From contig JAWKIM010000006.1 in assembly GCA_041394365.1 (NCBI GenBank), positions 470,590 to 534,589 on the forward strand: a stretch of DNA of 64,000 nt. The letters run 5' to 3'. Within the stretch, counting starts at the first letter, position 1; every line of letters begins with the position of its first letter. The translations under genes and the position numbers were made by a program. The notes beneath the pieces were generated by a model. It saw only the letters and a program-made list of their open reading frames with translations, searched no databases and had not been told where the DNA came from. The DNA is from Acidimicrobiales bacterium (GTDB lineage Bacteria > Actinomycetota > Acidimicrobiia > Acidimicrobiales > CAIXPF01). Positions 5,145 through 51,176 of the stretch are shown one piece after another.

Positions 5145-5182
5145 TGGCACGCGCCCGGCGGCCGGGGGCTCGCCGGGCGGCG

Positions 5183-5938
5183 TCAGTTCCGCAGCCAGAG
5201 CTTCATCTCGGCGTGCAGGTCGTCGTAGAAGCCGGCGAACTGCTTGCGCAGGTTGCTCGCCGGCCAGCCCGCCGGGCACAGGCCGTCGGGCAGCAGCGGA
5301 TCCTCGAGCAGGTGGCGGAGGGTGGCGGCGGCCACCATGAACCGGCCGGCCAGGTCGTCGGTGTCGTGGAGGGCGTCGATGAGTGCCTCGGCGCGCGAGG
5401 CCCACGCCGGCAGGTCCCACAGCTGGGCCACGAGCGCGTCGCGGGGTACGCCCACGGGGGCGTCGGCCACGAACACGGTGCACTGTTCGGCGATGGGCGG
5501 GGGCAGGTGGCGCACGCCGAGGTTGTCGGGACGCAGCCAGACGCCCTCGCGGAACTCGCCGAGCCGCTGGCCGGTCATGGCCTGGCGCAGGGCGCTGCGG
5601 TCGGCGGCGCTGCGCGATGCGGGGTTCACCACGGCGAGGTACCACCGGCCGCTCCATGGGACCCGGGAGTCCACCCGGCTCTGCTCCTGGCGGCGCTGAC
5701 GGTCGACGAGGCGGGTGGAGAGGCGGTACCGGCCGTTCTCGAGGGTGACGTCGCCGGCGGTGACCATGCGGGACAGCGCGGTGCGGGCGGCGCCCTCGGT
5801 GATGCCGAACAGCTCGGCCACGGCCACGAGCTTGGCCACCGGGAGTCTGGGAGGATTGGTGCCGAGGAGGACCGACAGCATGACCGATCGGGCGGTCAAC
5901 GGGCGCAGGCCCAAACGGGCATTACGAGATTTCGTCAC
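5183..5938 (-). CDS. PaaX-family transcriptional regulator.
   Basis: The 251-aa ORF has a PaaX-like N-terminal wHTH (SVMLSVLLGT…ALSRMV) and a PaaX_C-like C-terminus. It is divergent from the desaturase gene, with only about 27 bp between the annotated starts. Confidence 0.75.
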   Translation of the reverse strand: MTKSRNARLGLRPLTARSVMLSVLLGTNPPRLPVAKLVAVAELFGITEGAARTALSRMVTAGDVTLENGRYRLSTRLVDRQRRQEQSRVDSRVPWSGRWYLAVVNPASRSAADRSALRQAMTGQRLGEFREGVWLRPDNLGVRHLPPPIAEQCTVFVADAPVGVPRDALVAQLWDLPAWASRAEALIDALHDTDDLAGRFMVAAATLRHLLEDPLLPDGLCPAGWPASNLRKQFAGFYDDLHAEMKLWLRN

Positions 5939-5965
5939 GTGTCTTGGGAAGTGTAAGGTCGAAAC

Positions 5966-6965
5966 ATGGCTTCCATCGCAACCGTAACGCTGCGGAACAG
6001 TATGGTCCCAGCCCGGTCGATGCTGCCCGATGTTCTACCCACGGATCGACTCAATGCGCGTGCAATGGCGAAACCGCCGTTGCGTGACGAGCTCCGTCGC
6101 ATCCGCAACGGGCGCTCGGCGGCGGCGGTGGCGTCGATCGGGGCCCAGCTGGTGGCCATCTACGCCGGTGCGATCTGGTGGGCCAACCCGCTGGGCTACG
6201 CACTGGCGTTCGTGCTGCTCGGCCGGGTCATCGTGTGCATGAACATCCAGGGCCACGAGGCGGTGCACCGCACGCTGTTCTCCAACAAGGCGGTGAACGA
6301 CTGGGTCGGGCGGTGGCTGCTGTCCTACCCGGGCGTTCGTGGCCTTCGAGCTGTACCGGCGCGGGCACATGGCCCACCATCGCGATGAGCTGGGCCCCGA
6401 CGAGCCCGACCTGGCGCTGTACCGGGGCTATCCGATCACCCGGGCGTCACTGCGCCGCAAGCTCGTGCGCGATGCGGTGGGGATCTCGGGCTGGAAGATC
6501 TTCAAGGGTCTGGTGCGGGGGTTGCGCAAGCCGCGCACCCGTCCGATCGCCGCTCGCATCCTGGGGACGCAGGTGGTGTTGCTGGCCGTGGCCACCGCCT
6601 TCGGCCGGCCGGAGCTGTACCTGCTGTGGTTCGGGCCATGGATGACGCAGTGGCGGGTGACCAACCGGCTGCGGGCGCTGGCCGAGCACGGCGGCATGAA
6701 GCAGTCGACCGACCGGCGCGAGACCACCCACCAGGTGCGCCAGTCGCCCGTGGCCCGGTTCTTCATGGTGCCGTACCACGTGGGGTTGCACCTGGCCCAC
6801 CACGTGGACATGGGCGTGCCGTGCTGGAACCTGCCGAGGCTGCACCGGGAGCTCCGGGCGTCGGGCTGGCTGCCCGACACCCTGATCTACCCGACCTACC
6901 GCTCGCTCTGGCGCCAGCTCAGCTCCCGCCCGGCTGATGCCGCAGAGGCTTCGAGGCGCGCCTGA
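5966..6965 (+). CDS. Membrane fatty-acid desaturase family protein; one frameshift at about 6355 (extra G in CCGGGCG).
   Basis: Three histidine boxes are present (GHEAVH; HMAHHRDE; HVGLHLAHH). The ORFs 5966–6388 and 6339–6965 join as …LLSYPAFVAFELY… when one G is removed. Confidence 0.8.
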
Positions 6966-7249
6966 CGCAGCCGGTTTCGCACCCAGCGCAGACGTCGAGA
7001 CTTTTAGGACTCAACCTGCACGTTGTTGGAACGGCATTAGCAGACGACGACCGGGGCAAACCCTAAAGATATGAGACTCTGACGACGAAGCCCTTGCACG
7101 TTACGTCGTGCATGCGGGAGGGCTGCAGTCGTGGTCCAGCAGGAAAGGAGCAATCCGTCAGCTGCGCACTGGGCATGGCGCACGGCCGCTTCTGCGGGGT
7201 CCTCTGGACATCCGTCCATGCGCTGGGGTGGCTGGGACCGCTCAGCCCT

Positions 7250-9370
7250 TGACGCAGGTGCTGTCGCTCCTCATGCCAGTGGCCGCCATCATTATGGCGC
7301 TTCGCATCTACCGGCCGCGTTCGGTGGCCGTGGTTGATGCTCGTGCTCAGCTTCGTCGTGTGGTTTATGGGTGGCGCCCTTCGCACGGTACTGGACGATG
7401 GGAGACCTGACGGCCGACAGGTCTCTCTTGCCGGATGCCGCGACGATCCCGGGTTATGTACTCGCCGCTGTCCTGTCTCGGGTTCAACAGGGCCCGAAGC
7501 CGCCGACATGATCTCGACGCCCTGCTCGACGGCGTTATCCCTGCACTCGTCGCTCTGCTCGGGGCGTGGGTGTTCCTGATCGGGCCAGCACTCGCAAAGG
7601 AACACGTTCCATTGCGAGTGAGGCTGGTCCTTGCCTGCTACCCGGCGATGTCGGTGCTCGTGTTGGCCATGGCAGCCCGAGTGGGCTTCTTGGGCAGTCA
7701 GCGCTCGGTTGTAGCCGTCAGGCTCTTTGTCGGAGCTGTTGTATGCGTTTTGGCTGGTGACGTGCTCTATATGGTCGCCGACGCGCATATCGCGGCAGTC
7801 CCTCTGCTGGTGATCGACGTCCCATATGTCGGGGCGTCAATCTGCGTGGGCCTCGCGGCATTGCACCCCACCATGCGCGAACTCACTGAACCTTCGCCGC
7901 TGGACGAATCCGCGCCGAGGCCGCTGGCGGATACTGCTCGTGTCGGCGATGCTTGGTCTGCCGGCGCTGGTTGCGGTCACGAGGCCGCGGGACGGGTGCA
8001 GACGGGCTGTTCATCGTCGGGCTCATCGGCGCGTTCACGGTCATGGGGACATGGCGGGTCTTCAGGGCATTGCGGGACCACGCGGCGGTTGAACGTCGCT
8101 TGCTGCACCAGGCAACCCATGACTCCGTGACGGGCCTTCCGAACCGGCTCTATGTAATGGAACACCTCGCCGCCGCCTTACGAACGCGCTTCGGAAGAGC
8201 GATCGGTGGCCGTGATCTTTGTCGATATTGATCGGTTCAAGCTCGTCAACGATACAGGCGGTCATAGCGTCGGCGACCAAGCCCTTCGGGCTGTTGCAAG
8301 ACGGATGTGGAAAACACCGCTCCTGGCGACATCGTGGCGCGTCGGTGGAGATGAGTTCGTCGTAGAGCACAGGTGCGTCAGCTTGACGCATGCGCATGCG
8401 CTCGCCGAGCGTCTGCACCAATCGTTTCAGACGCCGTTCACCATCGAGGAACAACAGATCTTCACCTCAGCCAGCCTGGGTGTGTCGTTCGCTCAGCACA
8501 ATGACGCTGACGCAACGGGGGATACGCTCCTACGCAATGCCGACATCGCAATGTATGAGGCGAAGCAGGCGGGCCGGAGATGGTGTCGCGGTCTTTGATG
8601 AGTCCATGAGCGACCGCGCCGCAGAAAGGGTCGCGCTCGAACAGGAGTTGCGAGTCGCACTTGTAGCGAGCGAGATCCACGCCAACTACCAACCGATCGT
8701 CGATTCCAGCGGTCAGAAGAGTTGTCGGATTCGAAGCACTCATGCGATGGCAGCATCCTCAGCGGACTTGTGCCGCCGGTGAAGTTCGTTCCCATTGCTG
8801 AAGAGAATGGTCTCATCGTTGAGTTCGGACTATTCATGCTGAATGAGGCTTGCAGAGAGTTGGTGCGCTGGCGCCGCCTACCCGGACACGATCGACTTAC
8901 CGTCTCCGTGAACCTGTCGCCGCCTCAACTTCGTGACAGTGATCTCGTGAGTGCAGTAGATGCCATCCTCGGTAGGCACGGACTGCCAGGTGATGCTCTA
9001 TGCCTTGAACTGACCGAATCGGTATTGATGGAGGATCCGGAACGAGCCGAGGAGATGCTAAGGAAGCTGCGAGCCCTGGGTGTAAGGTTATCGATCGACG
9101 ACTCCGGCACAGGCTATTCGTCGCTAGCCTATCTCAAACGATTTCCAGTGAATCAGGTCAAGATCGACAAGTCGTTTGTCGACGGGCTCGCCGATCCAAA
9201 CTCTTCTGAGGCATCGCTGGTGGCAGCGATCATCGCTATGGCCAGGGCACTCAATCTTACAACGGTCGCCGAGGGGGTCGAGTTGCCTGTCCAAGCCAAG
9301 GCTCTCGAGGAACTGGGGTGTGATAGATTCAGGGACTTTGTTTTTCGCGGCCGGTCATGGCACACCTGGT
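7250..9370 (+). pseudogene. Membrane-sensor GGDEF-EAL (diguanylate cyclase/phosphodiesterase) gene, broken by at least seven frameshifts. It lies in a low-GC (about 60%) island.
   Basis: A multi-TM N-terminal region is followed by a GGDEF domain (HDSVTGLPNR…, FVDIDRFKLVND, RVGGDEFVV) and an EAL domain (YQPIVD, LELTES, DDSGTGYSSLAYLKRF, KIDKSFV, AEGVE), distributed over at least six ORFs in three frames. GC content is visibly lower than in the flanks. Confidence 0.8.
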
Positions 9371-9441
9371 GCCGCCGACGATCGAACGCTCGAAGAAGCT
9401 TCGCGCATCACAACGAAGCCATCGGTGTTACCGAACCCCGC

Positions 9442-10254
9442 TTACCGCGCTGCGTCGTTCCTCGCCAGCGCCTCGATGATGTCGCCAGGCACGAGCCCGC
9501 GGACGGCAGGCTCGAAGTAGCTTGCCAGGAACATGACGCCCAGTGCAGCGTCGCCCGTATCTGCGAGGCGGCGGCGGAACGCAGGAACGTCCGTCCAAAC
9601 TGGGAGTGTTGCGGGGGAATCCAGATACTGGCGTGCTTCGAACCCGGCCAGCGCTGAGAACGGCCTGCCGCAGAGATGCTGGACCACTCTGAGCGCCTTG
9701 GTGTCCATGAGGGCAAGCGCGATTTCGGTGCCGACGGTGCCCGTCACGACGCCCATCGACCCGATGGTCGCTTGAACCAGGAAGGCCTTGCGGTACGCAG
9801 GTTCAACCGCAAGCGTGGCGCAGTCCCAGAGTCGTGTTGGGTCGGCCTTCAGGCCGGCCGCGTGAAGGGCGATCGGTCCCGGAACCCCCCAGATCCGAGC
9901 GAGATCGTCCATTGTCTTCCATCCGAGGCCACCGGGACCGATCAAGCGGGTGGCGGCAACAGGGATCAGCCGCTTGTGATCGATGATGCACGTGAAAAGA
10001 CTCGAAAACTCGTAGGGGGCATACTCGCTCGACATCACCGCTGGCCCATTGCCATACGCATCATCGAAGACGCGCCGCTCCACGGCCCGTGCGAGCTCAG
10101 CGCCATCGTCTTGTGAGGCGAAGACGTAGAGGCCGAAGGGCTGCTGCGGGCTGCCCTGACGCATCATGACCTCGTACGCGATGGACTTCAGATGCTCCTG
10201 CGTGAGGTCGATCCCGCCGGAGGGTTCGTCGGGGCGTAGCCTGTCGCTTCGCAT
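9442..10254 (-). CDS. Hypothetical protein of about 270 aa (possible GNAT/LuxI-fold acyltransferase; uncertain). It is operonic with the AdoMetDC-like gene.
   Basis: Intact ORF with its start 5 nt after the upstream stop. I recognise no confident motif; the real start is probably the internal Met MRSDRL… of the 327-aa ORF. Confidence 0.45.
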   Translation of the reverse strand: MRSDRLRPDEPSGGIDLTQEHLKSIAYEVMMRQGSPQQPFGLYVFASQDDGAELARAVERRVFDDAYGNGPAVMSSEYAPYEFSSLFTCIIDHKRLIPVAATRLIGPGGLGWKTMDDLARIWGVPGPIALHAAGLKADPTRLWDCATLAVEPAYRKAFLVQATIGSMGVVTGTVGTEIALALMDTKALRVVQHLCGRPFSALAGFEARQYLDSPATLPVWTDVPAFRRRLADTGDAALGVMFLASYFEPAVRGLVPGDIIEALARNDAAR

Positions 10255-10259
10255 GGCGG

Positions 10260-10634
10260 TCAGAACGGTCGCCCGACGATGGCCCGGGCGTCGAAGAACC
10301 GTGCGGTGTAGTCGATGGCGACATCGGCGTCGAACGCCTTGCAGGTGTACACGTCCACGCTGAAGAACAGCTGCGGCTGCTCCCACGCATAGAAGTGCGC
10401 ACCAGACGTCTCCCAGTGGATCCAACCGGCCCAGCCGAACCGATCGGACCGGTGGGTGACCGGACGGGTGAGGGTGACCATGTCGCAGACTCCCGATAGT
10501 CCGAGCAGGTACGACTCGATCGCTGCCGCGTCGATCGGCGCAGTCGGGATACCTTCGATAACGAGCCGTTGACGGAGAATGGTCGGCGCGAGGTCCACGA
10601 AAAGTGGTGAGTCGGCTGCTGTCTGCTGCATCAC
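10260..10634 (-). CDS. S-adenosylmethionine decarboxylase-like (SpeH/SpeD small class) family protein.
   Basis: The 124-aa ORF has a pattern GWAGWIHWETSGAHFYAWEQ…FFSVDVYTC, resembling the AdoMetDC processing and active region (ESH…HTWPE…AVDVFTC). Confidence 0.55.
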   Translation of the reverse strand: MMQQTAADSPLFVDLAPTILRQRLVIEGIPTAPIDAAAIESYLLGLSGVCDMVTLTRPVTHRSDRFGWAGWIHWETSGAHFYAWEQPQLFFSVDVYTCKAFDADVAIDYTARFFDARAIVGRPF

Positions 10635-10858
10635 GTCGTCACCCTAAACAGGGGTGATCGATCCGACGCCTTGATCCCCGTTAGTTATTCGGCCGAGCGA
10701 TGCAACTGTGTTCACCCAAGCGGACCATGTCATCGGCAATGGGCGAAACCCCTAGTCCGTCGCCACAGCCCCGAGGCGAGGGCAACGGTTCGCCGGGCGT
10801 TCGCCGTGCATCGGAAGGGGATCTGGTAGGCGGATGTCGCACCGGCGAGCGCGGATGG

Positions 10859-12063
10859 TCAGTGCGGGAGCTCGGGGGCTCGGTGCTCGGCACCGGCTTC
10901 GGCGGCGGCGCGGACGGTTCGGTAGGGGCGATCGAGAGCCAGGGCGGCAGCGGCGACGTCGTCGTGCTCGGCCTTGGCCCCCCAGGGGCCGTGCTTGACC
11001 CGAACGTCGTGGCCGTCCACCTGGACGGTCACCACCCGTCGAGGGGCCACCCAGCGGTCGACCAGCCGTTGGCGCACGCCCAGCGTGCCGGTCTCCCTCG
11101 CCAGCAACGAGCGCAGCTCCGCCGCCCGGCCCGGCTCGCACAGCACGCTGACCAACACCGCCGGTCGGGACTTCTTCATGGTGATCGGCGTGTGCCACAC
11201 ATCGAGTGCGCCCCGCTCCAGCAGCAGCTGCCCGACGTAGCCCAGCAGCTCACCGGTAACGTCGTCGAGGTTGGTCTCCAGCAGGCAGACGGTCTCGAGG
11301 TGGCCGGCCTCCGGCGCGGCGCCGGCGTGCGTCGCGGAACCGGCGGCGTCCACCACCACCACCACCACCTGCAGCAGGTTCGGGCGGCCCGGCGGTTGCG
11401 GGTGCCGGCGCCGTACCCAGTGGTACGAACGACGCCGTCGGGCACCGGGCCCCACCCCGTGGTGAGCGCCGCCACCAACGCAGCACCGGTGGGCGTGGTC
11501 AGCTCCATCGGCACGTCCACCCCCCGCACCGGCGCACCCTCGAGCAGGGCGGCCACCGCCGGCGCCGGGTTGGGCAGCACACCGTGCGCCGCCCGGATGG
11601 TGCCCACACCCACGGCGACGGGCCCGCAGCGGACCTCGTCGATGCCCAGGTCCTCGAGCGCCAGTGCCACGCCGACGGTGTCGATGATCGAATCGACCGC
11701 GCCCACCTCATGGAAGTGCACGTCCTGGGGGTCGACCCCGTGCAGGTGGCCCTCGATCTCGGCCAGCCGCCGGAACGTGGCCACCGCCCGCTCGGTGGCG
11801 CGGGCCGGCAGCCCGGCACCGGCGATGCGCTCGATGATGTCGGCCGCCCGGCGGTGGTGGTGCTGCTCCTCCACGCCCACCCGCACGTGCACGCCCCGCA
11901 GCCCGGCTCGGTCCACCACCGCCGACCCGAGCGACCAGCCGTCGTAGCCGAGGCGTCGGCAGCCCGCTTCCACCGCGGCGAGGTCGGCGCCGGCGTCGAG
12001 CAGGGCGCCGAGCGCCATGTCCCCGGCGATGCCGGCGAAGGGGTTGAACCAGGCGATCCGCAT
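10859..12063 (-). CDS. larC: LarC-like nickel-insertion protein (DUF111, nickel-pincer cofactor biosynthesis); one frameshift near 11390 beside a (CCA)6 run.
   Basis: N-terminus MRIAWFNPFAGIAGDMALGALLDAG. The C-terminal half (RPNLLQVV…ETNLDDVTGE…MKKSRP…) is in a second frame within the ORFs 11176–12063 and 10859–11455. Confidence 0.8.
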
Positions 12064-18825: not shown

Positions 18826-19645
18826 CGTGCTGCAGCAACCCGACGTGCCCGCCCGGCCCCGCCTCATCGCCACCGACCTCGACGGCACCCTGCTGCGCAG
18901 CGACGGCACGCTCAGCGATCGCACGGTGGCCACCGTCACCGCCTGCGAGGCGGCCGGCGCCACGCTGGTGATCGCCACCGGGCGACCGCCCCGCTGGATC
19001 TCCGCCATCGGTGAGCGGCTCGGCCACCAGGGCCTGGCGGTGTGCGCCAACGGCGCGCTGGTCTACGACCTGGAGACCGAGTCGGTGGTGTCGAGCACCC
19101 GCATCGAGGTAGACGCCGCCGCCGAGATCGTCCGCCGGGTGCGGCGGGCGTGGCCGGCCGCGGTGTTCGCGGTGGAGGCGGTGGACCACCTCGGCCTCGA
19201 ACCGGCGTGGCCGCTCAACTTCGAGCCGCCGCCGGGCACCCGCTTCGGCGACGCAACGGAGTTGGTGACCGTGCCGCCGGTGAAGATCCTCGCCCGCCTG
19301 GAGGGCCATCCGGTGGAGGCGGCGATGGCCAGCACGGCGGCCGATCTGGCGGGCCTGGCCGAGGTCACCTGGTCGGGCGGCAAGCACCTGCTGGAGATGA
19401 GCGCGCCGGGTGTCACCAAGGGCGCGGCGCTCGCCGCGCTGGCCGACCGGCTGGGGGTGGGCGCGGTGGAGGCGATCGCCTTCGGTGACATGCCCAACGA
19501 CCTGGACATGCTGCGCTGGGCCGGCCGGGGTCTGGCGGTGGCCAACGCCCACGAGCTGGTGCGGGCCGCCGCCGATGCGGTGGTGGGCGCCAACGACGAC
19601 GACGGCGTGGCCGCCGAGCTCGAAGCCGTGTTCGGTCTGGGCTGA
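18826..19645 (+). CDS. HAD-superfamily hydrolase (Cof-type phosphatase).
   Basis: LIATDLDGTLL motif I and GDMPNDLDML motif; GTG start. Confidence 0.85.
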
Positions 19646-19717: not shown

Positions 19718-20769
19718 GTGATCGTCGAATCGTTGCTACCGCTGGGCAAGCTCGACCCGGGCCTCCGCGAGCCGGAGACCCCGCTCGACATCAGGGACTT
19801 CGCCCGCTTGGCGGCGGTGGCGGAGGAGGTCGGCCTCGGCGCCGTGCTGGTGGAGGAGACGAAGGACGACCCGTTCCAGCTGCTCGCGCTGGGGGCGACC
19901 ACCACGTCGCGGATCCAGCTCGGCACGTCGGTGGCGATGGCCTTCCCCCGCAGCCCCACCGCCACCGCGATGTCGGCGTGGTCGCTGCAGAAGGTGTCCA
20001 ACGGCCGGTTCCTGCTGGGCCTGGGCACCCAGGTGCGGGCCCACATCGAGCGCCGGTACGGGCTGCCGTGGTCGGCGCCGGCGCCGTGGATCCGTGACTA
20101 CGTGGGGGCCATGCGGGCGGTGTGGGACTGCTGGCAGCACGGCACGCCGCTGCAGTTCGAGAGCGAGCACTACACGCTCAACCTGATGGTCCCGCTGTTC
20201 AACCCGGGCCCGATCGAGCACCCGCGCATCCCGGTGCACCTGGCCGCCATCGGCCCCAACATGTGCGCGGTGGCGGGGAGTTGGCCGATGGTGTGCGGCT
20301 GCACCCGGTGTGCTCCGCCAAGTTCATCGACACCGAGGTGCTGCCCGCTCTGGTCCGGGGCGCGGCGCGTACCGGTCGGGATGTCGACGAGGTCGAGATC
20401 TGCATGAAGCCGCTGATCGGCACGGCGCCGGACGCGGCGACGTTGGAGAAGGTGGTCCGCACCGTGCGGGCCCGGGTGGCGTTCTACCTGTCGACCCCGT
20501 CCTACCGGCGGGCGTTCGCGGTGCACGGGTGGGAGTCGATCGCCGAGCGGGCGTCGGTGCTGTCACGGGCGCAGCGGTGGGAGGAGCTGCCCGGGCTGGT
20601 GGACGACGAGCTGCTGCACACGATCGCCACCGTCGGCACCTACGACGAGATCGCGGGCAAGCTCAACGAGCGCTACGCCGGCCGGGTGCACCGCATCGAG
20701 TTCTCGATCCCGGTCAACAGCGAGCAGGACGCCGAGGCGTTCCGCTCGATCCTGGCGCAGCTGCGCTGA
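19718..20769 (+). CDS. LLM-class F420-dependent oxidoreductase (luciferase-like monooxygenase family); one frameshift at about 20285 (G-run).
   Basis: The ORFs 19718–20407 and 20122–20769 join as …AIGPNMCAVAGELADGVRLHPV… when one G is added. Luciferase-like TIM-barrel sequence throughout. Confidence 0.8.
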
Positions 20770-20850
20770 CCCACCCGGTCGGCGCTGGCCGACGTTCGGT
20801 TCGCCCGGCCGACGTTCGGTTCGGCCCGGCCGACCACCGGGCCAACCCTT

Positions 20851-21011
20851 CGCGGGCGATTCGATCTCGATTCGCCGTTCTCGACCGGCGTGGAGCAGCC
20901 GCCCACAGACGGTGGTCGTTGCTGACCCCACGGGTGTGCTGCCACGCGCCGGGTGCCCGATCTTTGTGTCTCACGACCGGTTCCGAATCGACGTCGAATC
21001 GAGCGCGACGG
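20851..21011. repeat. Palindromic MITE-like repeat, copy 1 (arms CGATTCGATCTCGATTCG … CGAATCGACGTCGAATCG).
   Basis: The inverted 18-bp arms, each containing TCGACGTCGA, are separated by about 110 bp. They lie between the convergent LLM and SDR genes, and homologous copies occur at about 27.1 kb and 50.8 kb. Confidence 0.8.
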
Positions 21012-24734: not shown

Positions 24735-24943
24735 GCTCTGAGGGTAGTGCCGAACTGGAATCTTGAGAGACCCGCTCGGTTTTGCAACCCCGCCGTCTGG
24801 ACGTTTCGTCCAAAGGGCTCGTGGCGTTGGGACGTGCGACCCTTCCCGTCAGCCGATCGACCCCACGCGAATTGGCCGAAACGGCCGCCGGGAACGGGCG
24901 AAGTCCACTCGTGTTCGCTCGTCTGCGGAGCTAGACAGGGGCC

Positions 24944-25543
24944 GTGAACGCCTCGCCTGTCGCGCCGGGTGGTCGCAGGCACCTGCTGGGCATGGTCTGT
25001 TCTGCCCTGGGGGCGTGCGCGGCCACGACCGACGAAACCCTCGCCGTGTGCTGGTCGGTCGGGCAGGAACCGGCGGAGCGGCCGGTGGCCAGCCTCGTCG
25101 CCATGACGCCGTCCGAGGATCGCCCGGTTCTCGACGAGCTCGTGGGCCGCATGCAGACCGGGGCCGTGCACGTGCACCGAGCGGCGCCCTCGGGAGCCAC
25201 GTACTTCGCCTACGACGGCCGGTCCACCGACTTCGACCGCATCCTGTGGTACTGGCAGCCGGCGGCGGCGCGCGGCTCGCCGGCGAGCGCGCCGGGGGCC
25301 GTGGCCGCCGCGGCGGACAGCGAGCTGCTGGCATCGCTGACCGACCGCGAGCGCGCCGTGATCACCGCGATCCTGGCCGGCTCCAGGGTCAGCACCATCG
25401 CCCGGAGCCTCTTCCTCAGCCCCAGCACGGTCCGCAGCCACCTGAGCGCGGCGTTCAAGAAGCTCCAGGTCGGGTCGCAGGCGGAGTTGATCGAGCGATT
25501 CGGGGGCGCTGCTCGGTCGTTGGAGGGCCGAGCGAGCAGCTGA
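24944..25543 (+). CDS. LuxR-family transcriptional regulator (C-terminal HTH).
   Basis: The LuxR HTH is LTDRERAVITAILAGSRVSTIARSLFLSPSTVRSHLSAAFKKLQV. Confidence 0.75.
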   Translation: MNASPVAPGGRRHLLGMVCSALGACAATTDETLAVCWSVGQEPAERPVASLVAMTPSEDRPVLDELVGRMQTGAVHVHRAAPSGATYFAYDGRSTDFDRILWYWQPAAARGSPASAPGAVAAAADSELLASLTDRERAVITAILAGSRVSTIARSLFLSPSTVRSHLSAAFKKLQVGSQAELIERFGGAARSLEGRASS

Positions 25544-25852
25544 CCCGCGCAGGGCTCCGGAGGTGCCGCCAGCACGAGCGTACCCTTGGGTACGGTCGGG
25601 TCGACGGGCGCGAGCACACCGGCGGGTACGGCCCCGGCCACGGCGACCACCCGATCGCCGGCGACCACCGTCGGGCGCTGCCAAGCCGAGCCGGGGACGG
25701 CCATCCGGTCGCTCCGGGACGCCGGGGTACCGCGAGGTATGACGCAGCGGTACGGTTCCGGCGGCCGAGGATCTTGGCCGTTTCGTGGAAAGTTGCACGA
25801 TCGCGGGTCCCGGCCGTACCCGGTCGGCGCGGCGATGCCTACGCTCGGTCCG

Positions 25853-26089
25853 TGGAGCGGCTGTGTCGGCGTGACGATTGCGACGGGCGTTGTGGCGAGC
25901 GGACGATCGAGGCGTTCACCCACCAGGTGCGGGCGCGGGCGGAGCGTGCGCCGGGCGTCGAAGGGCTGGTGCCGCTGACCGCCACTTGCATCCGGTGCCT
26001 GCACATGTGGCCGCAGGTGGTGAGCCGGGAGGAGATCGACAGCGGTCGGGCACTCGATCGGCTGTGCGATCGCTGCGCTGCCGGCTGAC
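25853..26089 (+). CDS. Candidate small Cys-rich protein (about 78 aa, CxxxxCxxxC … CxxC … CxxC).
   Basis: GTG-start ORF with high GC3, between the two inverted LuxR-HTH copies. It has no recognisable family and is low confidence. Confidence 0.3.
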
Positions 26090-26113: not shown

Positions 26114-26440
26114 TCAGGTCTCGGGCGGCGGGTCGAGCCGGTAGCGCTCGACGAGCTCCGCCTGGGAGCGCACACCGAGCTTCTTGAAGGCCGCGCTCAG
26201 GTGGCTGCGCACGGTGCTCTCGCTCAGAACAGGCTGCGGCTGATCGTCTTGACCCGCCAACCGGCGAGCACGGGCCCACGACCGATCGCTCGCGGTCCGA
26301 GGTGGGCGAGCCGGGCTGCGGCTTCGGGCGTCGGCGCAGCGATGGCCCGAGGGGTCCGCAGCGGGAGCCTCTGCGTCGCCGGCGGGCTCGGCGGGCGGAG
26401 GTTGCCAGTACCAGACGATCTTGTTGAGCTCGGTGCCCCC
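26114..26440 (-). pseudogene. Truncated, frameshifted paralogue of the LuxR regulator (inverted partial duplication).
   Basis: …KIVWYWQ… and LSESTVRSHLSAAFKKLGVRSQAELVERY are about 80% identical at the nucleotide level to 25242–25543 on the other strand. The middle segment (TSDRERSVVG…) is in another frame. Confidence 0.6.
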
Positions 26441-26449
26441 GGAGGATCG

Positions 26450-28010
26450 CTGAGGCCCGGGTGACACTGACGTCGAGCAGGTTTCGCACGGTCGCGTTCG
26501 TGGCGCGGCCGTGTTCGGCCACAGGTGCGACGACCTTGCGGTCGATGTCGTAACCAGTGCGTCGGTGATAGCGCACGGCGGAGCCGAGTTGGGGTGAGGA
26601 CGGCGCTGCGAAGCCGATAGTCGAGCTGCGCGCGGTTGGCGCTCTGGCGCGTCGGCTCGAGCAGGTCGAACGGGGCGGCCGCCATCCGTGCGAGGACCGC
26701 CTGTGCGTCGGCGACCGGTCGCTGTGCGATCGGCGAGGGCCACGGCGTCGATCGGTCGGCGTTGCCAAAGCTCGCGCAGCGAGCAGGACGTCGGTCACGT
26801 CGGTGGCCGTTCAGCCCGTAGTCCCGTTGGACCAGCGCATTCGCGACCGCCTCGCGGACCGCGAGCTCCGGGAAGTCCGCGACGGTGATCTGCTGTCCTG
26901 AGCTCGGATCCACCGAGCCAGCCGTCGCACACCCCTGGACCGGGGCCCGCGCCCTTCTCGGTGCATGCCGGTCCGCCGGACTCCCGGGCCCGAACGCTCC
27001 GGCCGGCAGGCACCTGGCACCGTGCGCCTGCTGGGGCCGGCGCTCGCAGCCGGCCGGCAATCTGGGCCGTCCTTCAGCGGCGATTCGACGTCGATTCGAC
27101 GGCATCGACCGGCCGAGTTCGGCCAGCCACCGGTGGTGGCCTCACCCTCCGGTCGGGCTGCTCAGCCTCACCGATGGTGGCCGGACTTCGTGTCTCACGA
27201 CCAATTCCGAATCGACGTCGAATCGAGCGCGAAGGAGCCCGCCCATACCCCTCGGCATGTCGCCCACCCAGCCGCCAGAGCACGCCGGCGGTGAGCTGGA
27301 TCGAGAAGTCCGGCTCGGCCGACGATCTGACCCGGTGGACGTACACGAGTCGTGCGTCGTCACCCTGCGAGTCGGTCAGCAACAGCGCGCCGGCCCGGCG
27401 GAGCCGACCCTGGTCATCGAGCAGCTTCAGATTGCGCAGGAGCTCCGCCCCCGGCAGATCGGCGATCTCTCGGCCGGCCTCGGGCATGGCGCGAAGCCGA
27501 CGGCGCACGATGTCGATGGCAGCTGCGGAGACGTCGTCGAAACCGAGGTCCGTTGGCTCGGCCGTGATGTCCAGCCCTTGCCGGCTGGTGTAGAGCCGGT
27601 GCACCTCGACGGGACTCAGCGCCTTGCAGCCGGTGCCCATCCGCATCGTCACCCGTCCGGCGACCGAATAGACCTGCTGCCCCCGCGGGACGTCGAAGAC
27701 CATCAGGCGGACGTCGGCTGCCTCCGGCGGTCGGTACTCGGCGATGTCCACGACCAGGTTCGGGTTCGTGCGCTCGCAGATGCCCTTTCGCACGTCCATC
27801 ACGGACGCTGTTACGCCCCTGAGCGCGCCGATGCCACCGGGACGATCGGCGACACCGACGATCAGGTGCCCGCCATCTGCGTTGGCGAAGCACATGGCCG
27901 CCTCAGCGAGATCGGTCAGGGTTGCCGAGGTCGCGGGCGGTCTGCTTGAAGTCGAGTGTGGCCGACTCGAGGCTGTGCGCCGGCGAGCCCGTCGCGACGG
28001 CGTGCACGGC
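26450..28010 (-). pseudogene. AlbA_2 / HATPase_c_4-type putative transcriptional regulator, interrupted by palindromic repeat copy 2 and by frameshifts.
   Basis: The N-terminus MEVSDHIKL…ESATLDFKQ…LTDLAEAAMCFANADGGHLIVGVAD is an AlbA_2 domain. Downstream pieces are QQITVADFPELAVREAVANALVQRDY (HATPase_c_4) and GRATNATVRNLLDVSVTRASAILRG (C-terminal wHTH), in different frames. The repeat arms are translated inside the 346-aa ORF. Confidence 0.55.
27075..27234. repeat. Palindromic MITE-like repeat, copy 2, inserted within the AlbA_2 regulator gene.
   Basis: Arms CGATTCGACGTCGATTCG (27081–27098) and CGAATCGACGTCGAATCG (27208–27225). Confidence 0.8.
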
Positions 28011-28413
28011 CAGCTTGATGTGGTCCGATACTTCCATCGAGTTTTCCTGCACCCTCCACTCCCCAGATGGCAGGAAAACTCGGAGAAACCCCCTGCCGGG
28101 GGCGGCCGCGCCACCCTCGGCGGACGACGCTCGGCGCGGGAGTCTCTGGCTTGTCCCTCACAGGCCTATCGGCTGAGAGGGCGGGAGTAACCCCGGGAGT
28201 AACGAAGGCCGTCAGCTGCGACAGATCGACGACGCCCTTCGACTCGCCCTGGAACTCGACTGAGCCTGCGGTGCACATCGCACTCGAAACCGCCACCTCT
28301 ACCCGGCGTGGCGGAGGCGAGCGTCGGCGGGCTCCGGGTGTACCTGCCGTCGAGCACGATCCCAATCAGGCCCGGGTGCAGAACCGCAAGCGGCGCAACA
28401 ACCCCGCGATATC

Positions 28414-28640
28414 ATGATCGTTGTGACTGATATCCTGATCCGGGACGTGCCCGATGACGTCGTCGCCGCGCTCGGCGCGAACGCCCAACGCGCCGGTTTG
28501 GCGCGGGCAGAGTACCTCCGGCGGGTGCTGGCCGAGCAGCAAGGACCTCGGTCACCCGCGACCAACTCGATCGTTTCGCCGAGCGCACCGCCGATCTGGG
28601 CGATCCCGAGGTCATGGCCGCCGCGTGGCGGTGACCGGTT
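28414..28640 (+). pseudogene. RHH (FitA/VapB-like) antitoxin, frameshifted.
   Basis: MIVVTDILIRDVPDDVVAALGANAQRAGLARAEYLRRVLAE is the ribbon-helix-helix antitoxin pattern; the C-terminal part is lost to a frame change. Confidence 0.5.
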
Positions 28641-29024
28641 GGCTGATCGACAAGTCGGCGCTCACCCGTCTTGCGATGGCGAGTGGATAGTGGCTGTCGC
28701 GCATCCAGCGGCCTGGTGAGGATCTCGACCGTGACGTTGCTCGAGATCGGCTTCGACCCGCAACGGCATCGATCACCGCGCCACGCTGGGCGAGCCGCCG
28801 GTGTCGTCGATGCCCGTCGAGCACCTGGACCCCGCGATCGAAGCCCGTGCGGTCGAGCTTCAGATGTTGCTCGCCGATCAAGGTCAGCACCGCGCCCCGT
28901 CGATCCCCGATCTGCTCATCGCCGCAACTGCGGAAGCGGCGCGCTCGTGGTGCTGCACGTCGACAAGGACTTCGACCTCATCGCAGCGATCACCAACCAA
29001 CCGATCGAACGGCTCGACGTCTGA
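28640..29024 (+). pseudogene. VapC-type PIN-domain toxin, at least three frameshifts.
   Basis: [37 protein letters not shown] and [23 protein letters not shown] are in three different frames. Confidence 0.55.
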
Positions 29025-29159
29025 ACTGGGCGGGCACGGCCGCTCGACCTGACGTCCGTCGGAGGTCGCGGGTGGGTCAGCGACGGCACGCTGGCGGCGC
29101 GGAAGTTCCCTTGGACCTGGCGTTCGATCCGATCACAGTGGATGCGGCCCAGATGGGTA

Positions 29160-29480
29160 GGGTGCCGTGCGGGCGGCCTGCGGCCCGGTAGCTACGGCCG
29201 TGGCGATGGTGGCCGACGGGATGACCACGGCCGAGATCCTGGCCGAGCACCCCCGACCTGGAGGCCGAGGACGTGGCGCAATGCCTTCGCTATGCGGCAC
29301 CCGCCGTGGAGCGTGAGCTGCCGCCACGGCTGCCCGGAGTTCCTGCTCGATCAGAACCTCTCGCCGCTCGTCTCCGGCGTGTTGCAGGCGGCCGGTCATG
29401 ACGGTCCACGTGCGTGACCTCGACCTCGCCGCCGAAGGGCGCTGCGTGACGATCCTCGACGGATCTTTCCGAAGCTGAGT
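29160..29480 (+). pseudogene. Remnant of a DUF433 / DUF5615 gene pair (frameshifted, 3'-truncated).
   Basis: GMTTAEILAEHPDLEAEDVAQCLRYAA (DUF433-like) followed by LPEFLLDQNLSPLVSGVLQAAGHD (DUF5615-like N-terminus). Compare the intact pair at 47234–47847. Confidence 0.4.
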
Positions 29481-29739
29481 GGAAGATTGTACTGAACGTT
29501 GTTAGCTCGGTTGTCGACCGATCGCCGAGGGCGACAGCAGCATCTGACGTGACCTATCCGTCTGGTTGGAATGAGCGTATGTCGGCTACTTTGATGGACT
29601 GCCAGGCGGGAAATTGGAGCGGTCACGACGGGCTCCTCCGAATTGAATCGAGCGGATGTCGAGGTACTTCGAGACGTGGACCCGAAAATCGGGGTGCGAA
29701 CGAAGTCGTTCCTCGTGAATGTTGAGTTGGAAGGTCAAC

Positions 29740-30420
29740 TGCGTGGATCAACCCAGTTGATTCCCCTGCTTCTTGAGGCTGTCGCCGAGGAAGGCGCCCA
29801 GCCAGCGGCTTGTGTCAAAGTTCTGCGGCCCCTCTGAGTAGGGCGGTCCGTGAGCGCCGGGTCGAGGAGGCGGCTGGAGAGCTTGGGCGGTGGTTTGGGG
29901 GCGGTCGCCGGTGGCGGCACGTAGCCGTCACCGGCGCGAAGTCGTTCCTCGAAGCTCGCGGTGCGTCGTCGGCGCAGTAGCTCGACCACGACGGGCGTGA
30001 GGTGGTGGCGGCCGATGGCGCCGTCGGTCTTCACGGGCCCAGCACCATGCCGACCCCGTCGGCGTAGGCGCAGCCCTGCCGCACCTCGGCCACGCCGCTA
30101 TCGAGATCGACGTCGCCCCACGCTAGGCCGAGAACCTCCGACACCCGCCAGCCCTGGATGAACAGCAACGCCACCGCCACGCCCAGCCGATCCGGCGCAG
30201 CGTCGGCCACCAGCGCCTTCGCCGGCCGATAGGGCCCGTCGACTCGTGCGCGGCGTGCGCGGTGTGCGCAGTGCGCGGCGGGCGGAGCTTTGACACCGGG
30301 TTGGCGGCGATCAGGCTCGAGGGCGACGGCCTCCTCGAACGACCCGTCCGCCGCAGGCGCCGCTGTCCTTCGCCGCCCGTACGATGGGCGCTCAGAGTAC
30401 TCCCAGCCGGGAGTAACCGG
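29740..30420 (-). pseudogene. Tyrosine recombinase/integrase fragment (frameshifted, catalytic C-terminal part missing).
   Basis: The minus-strand translation gives …IAANPVSKLRPP…RARVDGPYRPAKALVADAAPDRLGVAVALLFIQGWRVSEVLGLAWGDVDLDSG…VKTDGAIGRHHLTPVVVELLRRRR, the integrase SAM-like and early catalytic-domain pattern. There is an internal stop/frameshift near 30035, and the region 3' of about 29740 is low-GC non-coding. Confidence 0.55.
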
Positions 30421-30541
30421 GAGTAATGGCGGGAGGAACGCCCCCGGCGCCGTCGAACACGCCGCGACGCGAGCCGGACGTTTTCCTGGTCAGAGTGCTA
30501 CGGGCCGATACCAGGCAACACGGCCGGCACGCAAAAGCCCT

Positions 30542-30632
30542 GCTGGCGGAACGGGGGGGATTCGAACCCCCGGGGCCTTTCGGCCCGGCCGCTTTCAAGG
30601 CGGCTGCATTCGTCCGCTCTGCCACCGTTCCG
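30542..30632 (-). tRNA. tRNA-Ser (anticodon TGA) with a long variable arm. The 3' end lies adjacent to the integrase remnant.
   Basis: Manual fold: acceptor GGCGGAA/TTCCGCC, anticodon stem GCCGC/GCGGC with loop CTTGAAA, long extra arm, T-loop GGGGGTTCGAATCCCCC. One extra C in the T-stem/acceptor junction makes the exact ends uncertain. Confidence 0.7.
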
Positions 30633-30714
30633 CCGACCATTCTCGCGCGGCGGCCGCCCGGTGCGGCGTGACCTTTGGCGACGGTGTGACGGGACCCGCG
30701 GTCGAGCGGGCCCG

Positions 30715-32852
30715 TCACGATGTCAACCGTTCAGTTGAGGGCGGGCGGCGCCGGCGGTGGCGGCACCGCCGGCCCGTTCCCGCTGTCGCACCGGCGCCGC
30801 CAACGCCGGCCGAGCCCACCAGCGAGCCGTGCAGCAGGTTCCGCACCAGCGTCGCCGCCAGGCCGTCCACACTGCCCCCGCCGCCGGTGACCAGCACCTC
30901 GGGCACCACGGTGATCTTGCCGTCGGCGATGGCGTTGGCCACCGCCACCAGCGCCGTGGCCACCTCGCCCAACGCCTGCTTCTGGGCTTCGAAGCCTTCC
31001 GCCTTGGCCAGTCCCAAGGCCTCCGTCGCCTTGGCCTCGGCCAGGCCGACCGCCTCGGTGCGGCTGGCCTCGGCGGCGCCGATGGCCTCCACCTTCACGG
31101 CCTCGGCCCGGCCGACGGACTCGATGCGCGCCGCCTCGGCCCGGCCCATCACCTCCACCCGGGTGGCCTCCGCTCGGGCGGTGGTCTCCACGTAGGCGGC
31201 CTCGCCCCGTGCCGCCTCGGCCCGAGCGTTGGCCTGGTTGTGGTTGATCTCCACCGACACCTGCGCCGATGCCAGCTGGCCTTGCATCTCAGCGGTACCG
31301 CAGGCCTTCTCCATCTCGATGCGCGCCGTCTGGGCCGTTGCTGCTCCTCGAACGTTGCCTTCTCCTGCTTGGCCACCTCCGCTGCGTCAACACCTGCACC
31401 AAGCTCCACAGGGAACTCGACGTCCTGGATGTACACGCCCTTGGTCTCCACCTCGTAGGCGTCGAGGTAGCGGCTGATGGCGGCGAACGCCGACTCCTGC
31501 ACCGCCGTCCTCGTCTCGATGAAGCGCACCGCCTCCAGCGCCTGGAGCGTGTTGCGGAAGTGGTTGCCCACCGCCGACTGCAGCACCTCGTTCACCAGGT
31601 TCTGCATGGTGCCGACCATCGAGATGACCTTCGGCGCCCAGGTGTCGGGCGCGTGGATCTGCACCTGCAGGTCGATCCGGAAGATGAAGCCCTCCCGGCT
31701 CTTGCCCTCGATCGGCGAGAGCTGGGCGTCGAGGTTGTGGGCCTGGGACACGGCGGTGGCCCAGTTGAGGGTGAGGATCGAGGTGGGCACGATCTCCGCC
31801 GCGTAGCAGCGCGGGTTGATCGGATACTTCCCGGTACGCAGCGGCTCCTGCCAGATGCCGCGGTGGCCCGGCCGTACGATCGACCCGAACTTGAACTCGG
31901 CGCCGGAGGTGTCCAGCGTCGGTAGACCGACGAAGGATTTCACCACCGCCACCTCGCCCTGGCGCACCACGAGCATGGGCACCAGCTCCACCCGCACCAG
32001 GAACGGGTTCAGCAGGTACGCGCCATACAGCAGCGGGTCGTGCTGCAGACCGATGCGCCCGCCGCCGTCGAGGAAGCGCTGGAAGTCCTGGTAGTTGTTG
32101 TGCTGCTCGTTCTTGTTGCCCAGCAGCACCTCGATGACCTCGGCGTCGGCTGCGCCGGCCTCCTCCATGCCGACGACGTCGTTGTAGCCACCCAGCCGGC
32201 TGGCGATGTCGCCCGAGGGCAACGGCTCGCCCTCCAGCGCGGTGACCACGCCCACCACATCGGTGTTGCCCTGCGGGGCGATGACCACCACCCGAAGGTG
32301 CTCGGGGCTCAACCCGAAGTCCTGCGGCGACAGCTCACCGTCCTGACCCACCGCCATGTCCGCACCGATCGGTACGCCGTAGACGGCATGGGCGGTGAGC
32401 ACCAGGAACGCGACCGGGTGGATGGGCAGCAGCGTGCCCGGCGTCAGCACCGGCCGCTGCACACCCTTCTGCCCGCCGTTGGCGAGGAAGGAGGCGACGT
32501 CGCCGAAGTTGCCGAAGGACGGGTGGTACACCGCGCTCTTGGCGCCGATGGGCAGCGGCGCACCCACCTGGGCGATGACCACGCCGATCTCGCCGGCGGG
32601 GATCTGCACCCACGGGTGCTTGCGCACCCGGTAGACGGGCCACAGCTTGAAGCGCAGGCCGGGCATGAGCAGATCGGCCTGGTAACCGGCCTCGCCGCGG
32701 AAGGCGATCGGGTCACCCGACGCCAGCCGCCGCCGGGCGAGCCGCTTGTTGACGAGGCCCAGCTCCGCCGGGCCGATGGAGTGCAGCGAGCGCAACGCGA
32801 CCACGGCGGCGACCGCCAGCGCGAACGCAGGAACGATGAACAGAGCCGGCAT
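30715..32852 (-). CDS. Flotillin / SPFH (band-7) family protein (YqiK-like); frameshift at about 31300–31350.
   Basis: An N-terminal TM is followed by an SPFH domain and an Ala/Glu-rich coiled-coil tail. The ORFs 31149–32852 and 30715–31314 join at …VAKQEKATFEEQQR / …MEKACGTAEMQ…. Confidence 0.75.
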
Positions 32853-33063
32853 CGACCGACCTCCTGGTTGACAAGTGGATGTTCCCTGCCGACCAGACTT
32901 CCCGGCGCACCGTTTGATGCAGGTCTACTCCCGAGTCGATGCCCTGGCAATCAAAATCGAGATGCCAGTTGGGTGACGACGGCCGGGGTGACCGCCGTGG
33001 GCGGTCGAGCGGTGCAACCCGTGTGGCTCCGGGCGCATCGCCGTGTAGGCTGTCGGCCGCATT

Positions 33064-33151
33064 GGAGAGGTGCCAGAGCGGCCGAATGGGGCGCCCTGCT
33101 AAGGCGTTGTCGGGGTCAACCCGACCGTGGGTTCAAATCCCACCCTCTCCG
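33064..33151 (+). tRNA. tRNA-Ser (anticodon GCT).
   Basis: Manual fold: acceptor GGAGAGG/CCTCTCC, anticodon loop CTGCTAA, long variable arm, T-arm GTGGGTTCAAATCCCAC. Confidence 0.85.
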
Positions 33152-33245
33152 CCGCCGTTCGGGGCCTCCAACCGGGGGCCCCGTCGTCGTTCCCGCCCCG
33201 GAAAAGCGGGCCCGCGGCCGTGCCGCCGCCTGGGAGGATGCCGCG

Positions 33246-34178: not shown

Positions 34179-34718
34179 CATCGCAGCTCGGATCAGGACC
34201 ACCGTCGCGGGTGGCGAGGGAGGGGCGGCGGCACCGCCGGCGACGCCGCGACCGTTCCCCCGCTCGGCGCTCGGACGCTGGTGGGCAGCGCACCGGCCAG
34301 GAACGGAAGCCGCGGCAGGCGACCGGACCGTTCGAGCGGTTGCCCCGCCGGAGCACCAGCACCAGCGCGGCGCTCCACAGCACGGCGGCCACCACGAGCA
34401 ACCCGAGGGGAGGCCACCGCCGGCATACCAGGCGATCGCCACCGCTGCGCTGCACACGTCGCCGATGACCCAGACCACGATGCCCGCCCGACGGCGGTAG
34501 AGCGGCCGGCGGGCCCCGGTCGCGCTCGAGCGTCGCCGCCTGGCGGAGCTCGCGCTGCCACTCGTCGGTGAGGTCGGCGCCAGCCCGTGCGCTTCGACGT
34601 GCGTGCCACCCCGCGGTCATCGGCACCGGTGGCCCGCGCCTGAACCGCGTCCGCTCCGGGCGGGGCGCCGCCCTACGCTGGCGGCACGCCGACCTTCCGC
34701 ATCCTCGGGCCGCTCGAG

Positions 34719-50802: not shown

Positions 50803-50964
50803 CCGGCGTCCTTCGCGGTCGATTCGACGTCGATTCGCCTTGGTCGACCGGGGCGGGCGAGTCGGCCCCGTTCCGTGGCCGCCCGTGACCCCGGGGGCCC
50901 GGAGCGTCGCCTGACGTGCTGTGATGTTGTGTGTGGCGACCAATTCCGAATCGAGCTCGAATCG
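50803..50964. repeat. Palindromic MITE-like repeat, copy 3, between the PrimPol-helicase and the HelD-like genes.
   Basis: Arms CGATTCGACGTCGATTCG (50810–50827) and CGAATCGAGCTCGAATCG (50937–50954). Confidence 0.8.
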
Positions 50965-51176
50965 AGCGCGACGGATTTCCCACACACCCTGCCGAACCAG
51001 GGCACAGGACCGAGGAGACCAGCCCGTCTGCAGGGACCGAGCCGGCCAGCCCGTCGGCGGAGACCGAGCCGGCGCACCACGCGGCTCGCAGCGACGACCC
51101 GGGCCGGGCGGACCGCGCCCCGCGGCCTAGATTCGCGACGGTCCCGGCGCCCGGTCGGCGACCACCCCGAGGTGTG

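Follow-up and report, generated by a model that had tools for sequence, protein, structure and literature searches.

We analysed a 64,000-nt stretch of contig JAWKIM010000006.1 from an Acidimicrobiales bacterium (hereafter the window; G+C content 71.5%), in which a segment beside a tRNA-Ser(TGA) gene had been described, in an earlier note made from the sequence alone, as the decayed remnant of an integrative element. A degenerate tyrosine integrase gene (int) is adjacent to the tRNA gene and on the same strand, its start (30385) being 159 nt from the tRNA 3' end (30544). Further from the tRNA, on the other strand, are a low-GC stretch, the stump of a DUF5615 gene, a DUF433 gene, a VapBC toxin-antitoxin pair and the end of a PemK/MazF-like toxin gene, and doublets of the motif GGGAGTAAC are present at both ends of the segment (Table 1). 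Comparison with related loci makes it quite probable that the segment is the remnant, no longer mobile, of a small integrative mobilizable element (IME) from an Acidimicrobiia family that inserts at tRNA 3' ends, that the doublets are arm-type sites of its integrase and that most of the frameshifts in the window are artefacts. The relatives thereby support the earlier view of an integrative-element remnant with a degenerate integrase at this tRNA.

The two GGGAGTAAC doublets (28183–28203 and 30409–30427) are real and beyond chance. Four exact copies of GGGAGTAA occur in the 64 kb (starts 28183, 28195, 30409 and 30419), all within the doublets, whereas 0.31 are expected and none of 100 shuffles reached four; the 10-nt doublet near the tRNA was recovered by Tandem Repeats Finder (TRF) too. 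The presence of such doublets at both places is confirmed. The cluster near the tRNA, read on the int strand, consists of a degenerate copy, TTCCTCCC, and two copies of TTACTCCC with spacings of 12 and 10 nt, followed by an inverted copy (30398–30404); the degenerate third copy is GGGAGGAAC at 30431–30439. The distal doublet reads GTTACTCCC-ggg-GTTACTCCC on the int strand with a spacing of 12 nt, and its flank is most similar to that of the distal cluster in the related locus L063. Readings of the GGGAGTAAC motif as a Shine-Dalgarno/start element, a stop-codon cassette or an extracytoplasmic function (ECF) promoter were dropped given its positional conservation throughout the family, and an Rfam search over 27.9–30.7 kb returned nothing apart from the tRNA.

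Relatives of the integrase were sought in one genome per GTDB species, and 80 loci were examined of the 451 relatives, every one of which is from Acidimicrobiia. At 45 of the 80 loci a tRNA gene lies on the int strand with its 3' end 100–200 nt upstream of the int start; the targets are mostly tRNA-Ser (TGA, CGA and GGA), with some tRNA-Ala, tRNA-SeC and tRNA-Thr. Of these loci, 41 have two to five direct repeats, spaced by 10–12 nt, about 100 nt 3' of the tRNA and just ahead of the int start. An exact 8-mer repeated at a spacing of 10–13 nt (12 nt in 36 loci) was found within +81 to +180 relative to the tRNA end in 41 of the 45, compared with 2.2% of control windows, and the repeats at the remaining four are imperfect as judged by eye. 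The motifs are lineage-specific (TTACTCCC, TTGCTCCC, TTACTCCA, TTACTCTC, TTGCTACC, TAGCTACC, TTAGTCTC and TTACTGCC) and track the integrase lineage, not the identity of the tRNA. The search of related loci for further doublets beside integrases, which the earlier note had proposed, gave 36 TTACTCCC-N2-4-TTACTCCC doublets in 1.2 Mb. Thirty of these are int-proximal, the other six lie downstream of int, on its strand, and none is found elsewhere. Two further observations concern the family at large. At six loci (L050, L055, L060, L061, L065 and L070) an inverted tRNA gene lies just downstream of int, a second configuration in which int is therefore at the opposite end of the element. In addition, one metagenome-assembled genome (MAG), MFD04944.bin.2.195, has two loci with the TTACTCCC motif, L009 and L011, at tRNA-Ser(TGA) and tRNA-Ser(CGA), so that cross-recognition between elements is conceivable.

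Complete elements were identified at seven of the related loci and range in length from 5.7 to 10.8 kb. In all seven, the cognate motif recurs distally on the same strand, as a doublet or triplet that lies 60–100 nt before an 18–19-nt copy of the tRNA 3' end that has zero to two mismatches over 18 nt (the core of attR, the far attachment site). This copy shows that the family does duplicate the tRNA end, which is at odds with the suggestion that the doublets might be the attachment (att) core of a family that leaves the tRNA unduplicated. A second conserved sequence, the CTGACCAGG box with the consensus CTGA(C/A/G)C(A/T)GG, is present at +41 to +55 from the tRNA end in 24 of the 45 loci and 30–41 nt before the attR core in seven of seven complete elements, compared with 1.3% of control windows; Xis, a host factor or Int may bind it. 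Within the element, short repeated sites unlike the core are present on both sides of it, in the family as a whole as well as in the window (30398–30439 and 28183–28203). The cargo of the complete relatives and of the locus L005 includes TrwC/AAA_30 relaxase-helicases, HTH_17 (excisionase-like) and HTH_3 helix-turn-helix (HTH) regulators and, near the distal end, toxin-antitoxin pairs; a HigBA-like pair in L063 has the element position equivalent to that of VapBC in the window. No FtsK-like domain was found in Pfam scans of the cargo of L005, L017, L031, L043, L063 and L077, in which only open reading frames (ORFs) with high third-position G+C (GC3) were scanned. Relaxase-type cargo in which no FtsK-like translocase was seen points to the family members being small IMEs, not actinomycete integrative and conjugative elements (AICEs) or prophages.

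The integrases of the family have approximately 85 additional N-terminal residues, a region that the window copy has lost. Among the integrases of mobile elements, arm-binding domains and arm sites are the norm (PMC8138268). In this family, N-terminal residues covary with the motif, RRVRGRTREEAL being found with CTCCC and RSVSGATRDKAI with CTACC or CTTCC. In an AlphaFold model of the N-terminal 182 residues, a beta-beta-beta-alpha arrangement precedes a four-helix core-binding domain, the latter modelled with confidence; the structures that match the model best are those of full-length lambda Int (154–164 aligned columns, E 8e-6), although the predicted local distance difference test (pLDDT) score of the strand-helix part is only ~50–60. 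Our reading of the GGGAGTAAC doublets as putative arm sites is based on their position, strand and periodicity, the covariation with integrase lineage and the second cluster inside attR, and this comparative evidence fits the earlier proposal that the doubled motif may be arm-type sites.

The int gene of the window is dead, yet not through loss of its C-terminus. Degeneracy of the gene, as claimed previously, was borne out, and it is the supposed lack of the catalytic C-terminus that was not: two internal deletions are present and the tail with the catalytic Tyr is kept. The start codon (30383–30385) is ATC, which is ATG in the intact gene of L005, and about 17 N-terminal codons are retained. 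The first deletion (~30337) fuses ..DGSF to EEAV..LIAANPV, with loss of the putative arm-binding domain and of the greater part of the core-binding domain, and the second (~29926) fuses ..RAGD to GYVRHLG, with loss of some 86 residues, among them those of the HxxR and H boxes. Still present are Arg I (GWRVSE), the beta-hairpin Lys, the catalytic Tyr (GYV) and the C-terminal tail GYV..GDRPQTTAQ..SSRLLDP. The catalytic set R-K-H-R-H/W-Y is incomplete in the window and complete in L005 (415 aa) and L079. Having lost the HxxR and H boxes, whole domains and its start codon, the window int falls short of a tyrosine recombinase, and the window copy is best classed as a remnant, not as a member of the element family. 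The same int remnant was found in L002 and in L083–L090. The 9-bp tandem repeat reported for this gene was also detected by TRF, in the linker that joins the core-binding domain to the catalytic one; it encodes PRT repeats whose copy number varies between strains (PPRTPRTPRTPRT in L002, PPRTPRTPRT in L083, a single PPRTSRAHRR in the intact gene of L005).

Fragmentation of the frames limited Pfam searches of the six-frame translations of the window to two matches, one to FitA-like ribbon-helix-helix (RHH) and a weak one to integrase. Both are in accord with the gene identities first proposed, and strong matches to Acidimicrobiales integrases were obtained for the integrase-like translation; the PIN, DUF433 and DUF5615 identities were confirmed through relatives. 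The intact element nearest to that of the window is in L005 (Acidimicrobiales SJ307), a locus that has the same flanks as the window and the intact integrase. Its cassette of DUF5615, DUF433, VapC, VapB and PemK genes is ~8.3 kb past int and 91.6% identical to window positions 28214–29432. Relative to L005, the window has lost an RHS toxin gene, an IS256-type transposase gene, a relaxase gene, most of the DUF5615 and pemK-like genes, and the DNA from there to the distal doublet. In L005 itself, positions 4739–11231 encode a 1140-aa RHS-repeat toxin, an IS256/Mutator-type transposase and a TrwC relaxase, the ORF of the relaxase overlapping the transposase gene downstream.

The limits of homology to L005 mark the deletion junctions. 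On the left it begins at ~28214, the junction in the pemK-like gene being ~10 nt from the distal doublet and identical in L083, and on the right it stops at 29433, at a DUF5615 truncation common to all strains. The adjoining low-GC stretch, which has no homology to L005, had been taken for about 300 bp of non-coding DNA; in relatives, however, it is fused to the DUF5615 stump and supplies the 3' two-thirds of an ORF of 236 codons. A private deletion at 29456 has removed 200 nt of this ORF from the window. The converse explanation, a duplication in the relatives, was rejected since their extra 66 codons are unique sequence. The ORF has no canonical lipobox, and a lipoprotein reading is not claimed.

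Whether the frameshifts in the remaining genes represent decay was addressed with sister assemblies, namely three NCBI MAGs (L083–L085) and five Logan assemblies from different runs (L086–L090), together with L002, which covers the integrase end. The sister contigs, found by searching with the frame-corrected VapC, represent the same locus at 97–99.3% identity to the window. VapB (70–73 aa) and VapC (132–134 aa) are intact in eight independent assemblies and DUF433 in the five Logan assemblies, so the statement that every gene in the segment is broken finds no support. Both VapBC domain identities were confirmed, with frames that are open in the eight sister assemblies and L005 and interrupted in the window by private indels: in VapB a single 1-nt deletion (28549), and in VapC, whose frame is broken in the window alone, indels between 28686 and 28943. 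The frame-corrected window VapC is 98% identical to the intact proteins P0066 and P0067. Most of the DUF433 frameshifts are private as well, whereas an extra C at ~29250 is also present in L083. In the population the VapBC pair is intact.

Small indels are a property of more than this segment. Over 19 kb the window differs from L083 by 69 indels and ~152 substitutions, and 57 of the 69 are deletions in the window (12 are insertions), mostly of 1–2 nt and in short G/C runs or dinucleotide repeats. Within 28214–30549 the window has 19 small private indels and each of four independent assemblies has zero to three, the four agreeing with one another at all 19 sites. Further private 1–2 nt indels were noted at 20275, at 31335/31379/31401, at 34217–34577 and at 36699; the genes hit are those for a luciferase-like oxygenase, a flotillin/Band_7 protein, a 269-aa protein and an 1100-aa BTAD regulator, all of which are intact in L083 at 98–99% identity. 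The oxygenase (350 aa), flotillin (707 aa) and 1100-aa regulator are intact in the sister assemblies. This suggests that the window as a whole carries deletion-biased consensus errors. Most of its frameshifts are probably errors of the long-read type, which fit far better than neutral decay because the indels are private, short and deletion-biased, affect housekeeping genes and are absent from intact sister copies. A similar error signature is suspected in L001 (ERZ25039533 contig_55475) and many MFD MAG loci, long-read-style assemblies in which FMN_dh, AMP-binding and BBE/FAD_binding_4 genes and the integrase P0008 are split. The lesions common to all assemblies, in contrast, are therefore real: the two int deletions, the loss of its start codon, the truncation of DUF5615 and of pemK, and a split AlbA_2 gene to the left of the distal doublet; the extra DUF433 C is present in some strains. 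Two larger absences from the window, of 448 nt (26438/26439 versus L083 7361–7809) and of 200 nt (29456 versus L083 10851–11051), are probably real strain-level deletions, unlike the 1–2 nt indels.

Table 1. Features at the tRNA-Ser(TGA) locus, with positions in the 64,000-nt window and the basis of each assignment
Feature	Position	Strand	Basis
AlbA_2/HATPase_c_4 pseudogene	26440–28052	minus	Pfam SLFN_AlbA_2; intact 593-aa homologue in L079
Distal doublet, putative arm sites	28183–28203	minus	Motif matches on int strand; equivalents in complete relatives
PemK/MazF-like toxin gene end, last 16 codons (QLRQIDDALRLALELD, then stop)	28213–28263	plus	Full gene of 156 aa in L005, Pfam PemK_toxin
VapB (FitA-like RHH) antitoxin gene	28414–28635	plus	Pfam FitA-like_RHH; 73 aa intact in L083 and L005
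VapC (PIN) toxin gene	28625–29024	plus	Intact, 134 aa, in L083–L090 and L005
DUF433 gene	29117–29337	plus	Alignment to L005; intact (76–91 aa) in L086–L090
DUF5615 (PIN-like) N-terminal stump, ~33 codons	29335–29433	plus	Pfam DUF5615, residues 1–33 of L083 ORF; full gene of 124 aa in L005
Low-GC stretch	29434–29837	plus	Composition; gene calls in L083–L090
Tyrosine integrase remnant	29838–30385	minus	Weak Pfam Phage_integrase match; strong matches to Acidimicrobiales integrases; alignment to relatives
9-nt tandem repeat CGTGCGCGG, 4.7 copies	30245–30284		TRF
Int-proximal cluster, putative arm sites	30398–30439	minus	Motif matches in window; homologous clusters at same position in 41 of 45 related loci
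Conserved box CTCTGACCAGG, putative second class of arm site	30485–30495	minus	Family comparison
tRNA-Ser(TGA)	30544–30631	minus	ARAGORN; Rfam tRNA, 54 bits; 3' 18–19 nt (30544–30562) equal the family att core, attL side

The left side of the segment is less well defined than the tRNA side. A local alignment of the tRNA and spacer and a 19-mer mismatch scan, with shuffles, revealed no attR core above chance to the left of the tRNA in the window, and a candidate at 28093–28111, with 8 of 19 matches by eye and at the expected distance of 71 nt, was rejected as not significant. The AlbA_2 gene starts 145 nt past the distal doublet. It is split in L083 too (pieces of 44, 273 and 268 aa) and in the window is interrupted by an insert resembling a miniature inverted-repeat transposable element (MITE; 27050–27236); in L079 its homologue is the first cargo gene after int. 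GC3 is atypical from ~24.6 to 30.5 kb. The doublets had been presented as the bounds of the decayed zone, a description that is not upheld given a pseudogene beyond the left doublet, in relatives as in the window, and no recognisable attR. With neither box nor core past the doublet, the AlbA_2 pseudogene beyond it and atypical GC3 from ~24.6 kb, the left border has been erased, and island-type DNA reaches further left. The AlbA_2 gene is probably island DNA of an older or tandem element outside the doublets.

Other features of the flank were noted in passing. The MITE-like repeat, of ~170–190 nt, occurs at 20826–21011, 27050–27236 and 50807–50981 (70–73% identity between copies) and has inverted ends of 29 nt (27070–27098 and 27208–27236). 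The interval between SdpI and the AlbA_2 pseudogene contains a gene for a LuxR/GerE regulator and, in inverted orientation, a broken fragment paralogous to it (25415–25504 / 26138–26227 and 24763–26088), the 90-nt arms being 78% complementary. A HAD-hydrolase gene at ~19 kb (18854–19635) adjoins tRNA-Ser(GCT) in L034 and L047 and is on the far side of the island in the window and L005. The arrangement of 18854–19635 and 30546–33155 suggests that the segment with both tRNA-Ser genes and the island is inverted with respect to L034 and L047.

The family has counterparts among known systems. Like lambda-type integrases (lambda P1/P2 and P'1–P'3, mycobacteriophage L5, Tn916 and CTnDOT), its integrases would have three domains (a predicted arm-binding domain, a core-binding and a catalytic one), and short direct repeats distinct from the core are found on both sides of the core; a tandem triplet of putative arm sites next to int resembles lambda P'1–P'3. 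Specific to the family are the TTACTCCC motif and its variants with their 12-nt phasing, the placement of both clusters on the same strand and the additional CTGACCAGG box in both arms. With tRNA islands and relaxase-encoding IMEs the family shares an int gene by a tRNA 3' end, a far border marked by a short copy of the tRNA end in direct orientation, a length of 5.7–10.8 kb, a TrwC/MobF-type relaxase-helicase, an Xis-like HTH_17 protein and toxin-antitoxin cargo, but the window copy is a fossil without relaxase, most of int or the far border. AICEs such as pSAM2 and SLP1 are likewise actinobacterial elements of ~10 kb with a tyrosine integrase that insert into tRNA 3' ends. Unlike them, the family has a TrwC-type relaxase, and neither an FtsK/SpoIIIE-like Tra nor a RepSA-type gene was seen in the complete relatives whose high-GC3 ORFs were scanned. 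The cassettes of VapBC (FitA-like RHH and PIN) and DUF433/DUF5615 are of the kind found on islands, here as an overlapping pair at the distal end, intact in the population; they differ from typical VapBC cassettes in nothing unusual, apart from window frames that are interrupted, probably by sequence errors.

It is conceivable that the repeats are not arm sites but operators through which an element-encoded excisionase or recombination directionality factor (RDF), or an HTH repressor, controls int, as the proximal cluster is directly upstream of the int start in a promoter/operator position and HTH_17 and HTH_3 proteins are encoded by complete elements. However, int is the sole gene common to all repeat-carrying loci while their cargo varies widely, the second cluster is at the far end beside attR, away from int, which suits a recombination architecture, and the motif class follows residues of the putative arm-binding domain, for which reasons we view operators as very unlikely. 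The left doublet could also be the int-proximal cluster of a second, older tandem element that has lost its integrase and whose first cargo gene was AlbA_2. The order of genes in L079, the decayed AlbA_2 gene so near the doublet in the window and the atypical GC3, which makes the island larger than 2.2 kb, are all compatible with such an origin. It would require two deletions that each end flush with the doublet, though, and there is no CTGACCAGG box or core on the expected side. In addition, the doublet is preceded on its 5' side by ttcG, much as distal clusters are (tccG, gccG), and not by the agcG that is nearly constant in proximal ones, and its flank is closest to that of the distal cluster of L063. 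This resemblance to distal clusters therefore favours a single element, and we assign quite a low probability to the tandem arrangement. A further idea, which we consider highly improbable, is that the arm arrays were kept as still functional, either as substrates for a paralogous TTACTCCC-specific integrase (trans-mobilisation or rearrangement) or as regulatory sites for the toxin-antitoxin and AlbA_2 genes; it leans on the co-occurrence of the same motif in L009 and L011 and on the inversion of the locus relative to L034 and L047.

The window might also be a faithful record of a strain in which the whole remnant, VapBC and DUF433 included, has truly decayed by many small deletions, as the earlier note had assumed. 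The density of indels relative to L083 is highest within the island (int remnant, 17 per kb; core flank, 1.6 per kb), an accumulation to be expected in unconstrained DNA, and the private 200- and 448-nt deletions are unlikely to be base-calling errors. Neutral decay normally yields far more substitutions than indels, however, and gap openings match or outnumber mismatches across the island remnant (15 versus 14 in 26438–29457, 21 versus 9 in 29457–30680). The indels are also biased to 1–2 nt deletions in short runs, the same type breaks the oxygenase, flotillin and regulator genes that are intact in L083, and the concordance of four independent assemblies at 19 of 19 sites is a further point against genuine decay, which we consider unlikely. 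Several observations nevertheless weigh against the interpretation we prefer, that of a single IME remnant with putative arm sites and largely artefactual frameshifts. The covariation of motif and integrase is confounded by phylogeny, the arm-binding part of the structural model is of low confidence and Pfam gave no match to the arm-binding domain alone. Beyond the distal doublet of the window there is neither CTGACCAGG box nor att core, which leaves the left end of the element without a fixed position, and the AlbA_2 pseudogene found there is a cargo type of a related element in L079. Finally, the indels of the window are clustered, not uniform, and other parts of it have intact long ORFs; a minority of the frameshifts could therefore be real strain differences.

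As a single IME remnant, the segment would descend from an element organised as its complete relatives are. From the tRNA, an intact element would consist of the 18–19-nt att core, ~45 nt, the CTGACCAGG box, a further ~45 nt, two to five direct arm repeats (TTACTCCC in this lineage) and int, and then of cargo (TrwC-type relaxase, Xis-like HTH protein, toxin-antitoxin), two or three same-strand arm repeats, the box and the copy of the att core. By analogy with lambda Int, the putative arm-binding domain of the integrase would engage the arm repeats and its core-binding and catalytic domains the core, forming a complex for integration and excision. The int-proximal cluster ends ~25 nt before the start codon, and for this reason it probably also serves in autoregulation of int. 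The ancestor of the remnant was probably an L005-like element of more than 11 kb, from which deletions took the 8.3 kb of cargo, most of the pemK-like and DUF5615 genes, two parts of int and the outer part of attR with its box and core, leaving a remnant that is unable to move by itself. This remnant appears to be fixed across a species-level clade.

The window itself is of little importance, since the fossil is ordinary and the element of a type already known. It also provides a caution: where one assembly is dense in frameshifts, these may be errors of its consensus, and sister assemblies should be checked before decay is called. The comparison to which it led, on the other hand, establishes where attL, attR, the putative arm repeats and one additional conserved box lie in a large and so far uncharacterised group of Acidimicrobiia IMEs. 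As the arm motif and the N-terminal domain of the integrase change together, the family represents a natural data set on arm-site recognition, with a possible recognition code, and may also aid in marking the borders of islands in a bacterial class that has been little studied.

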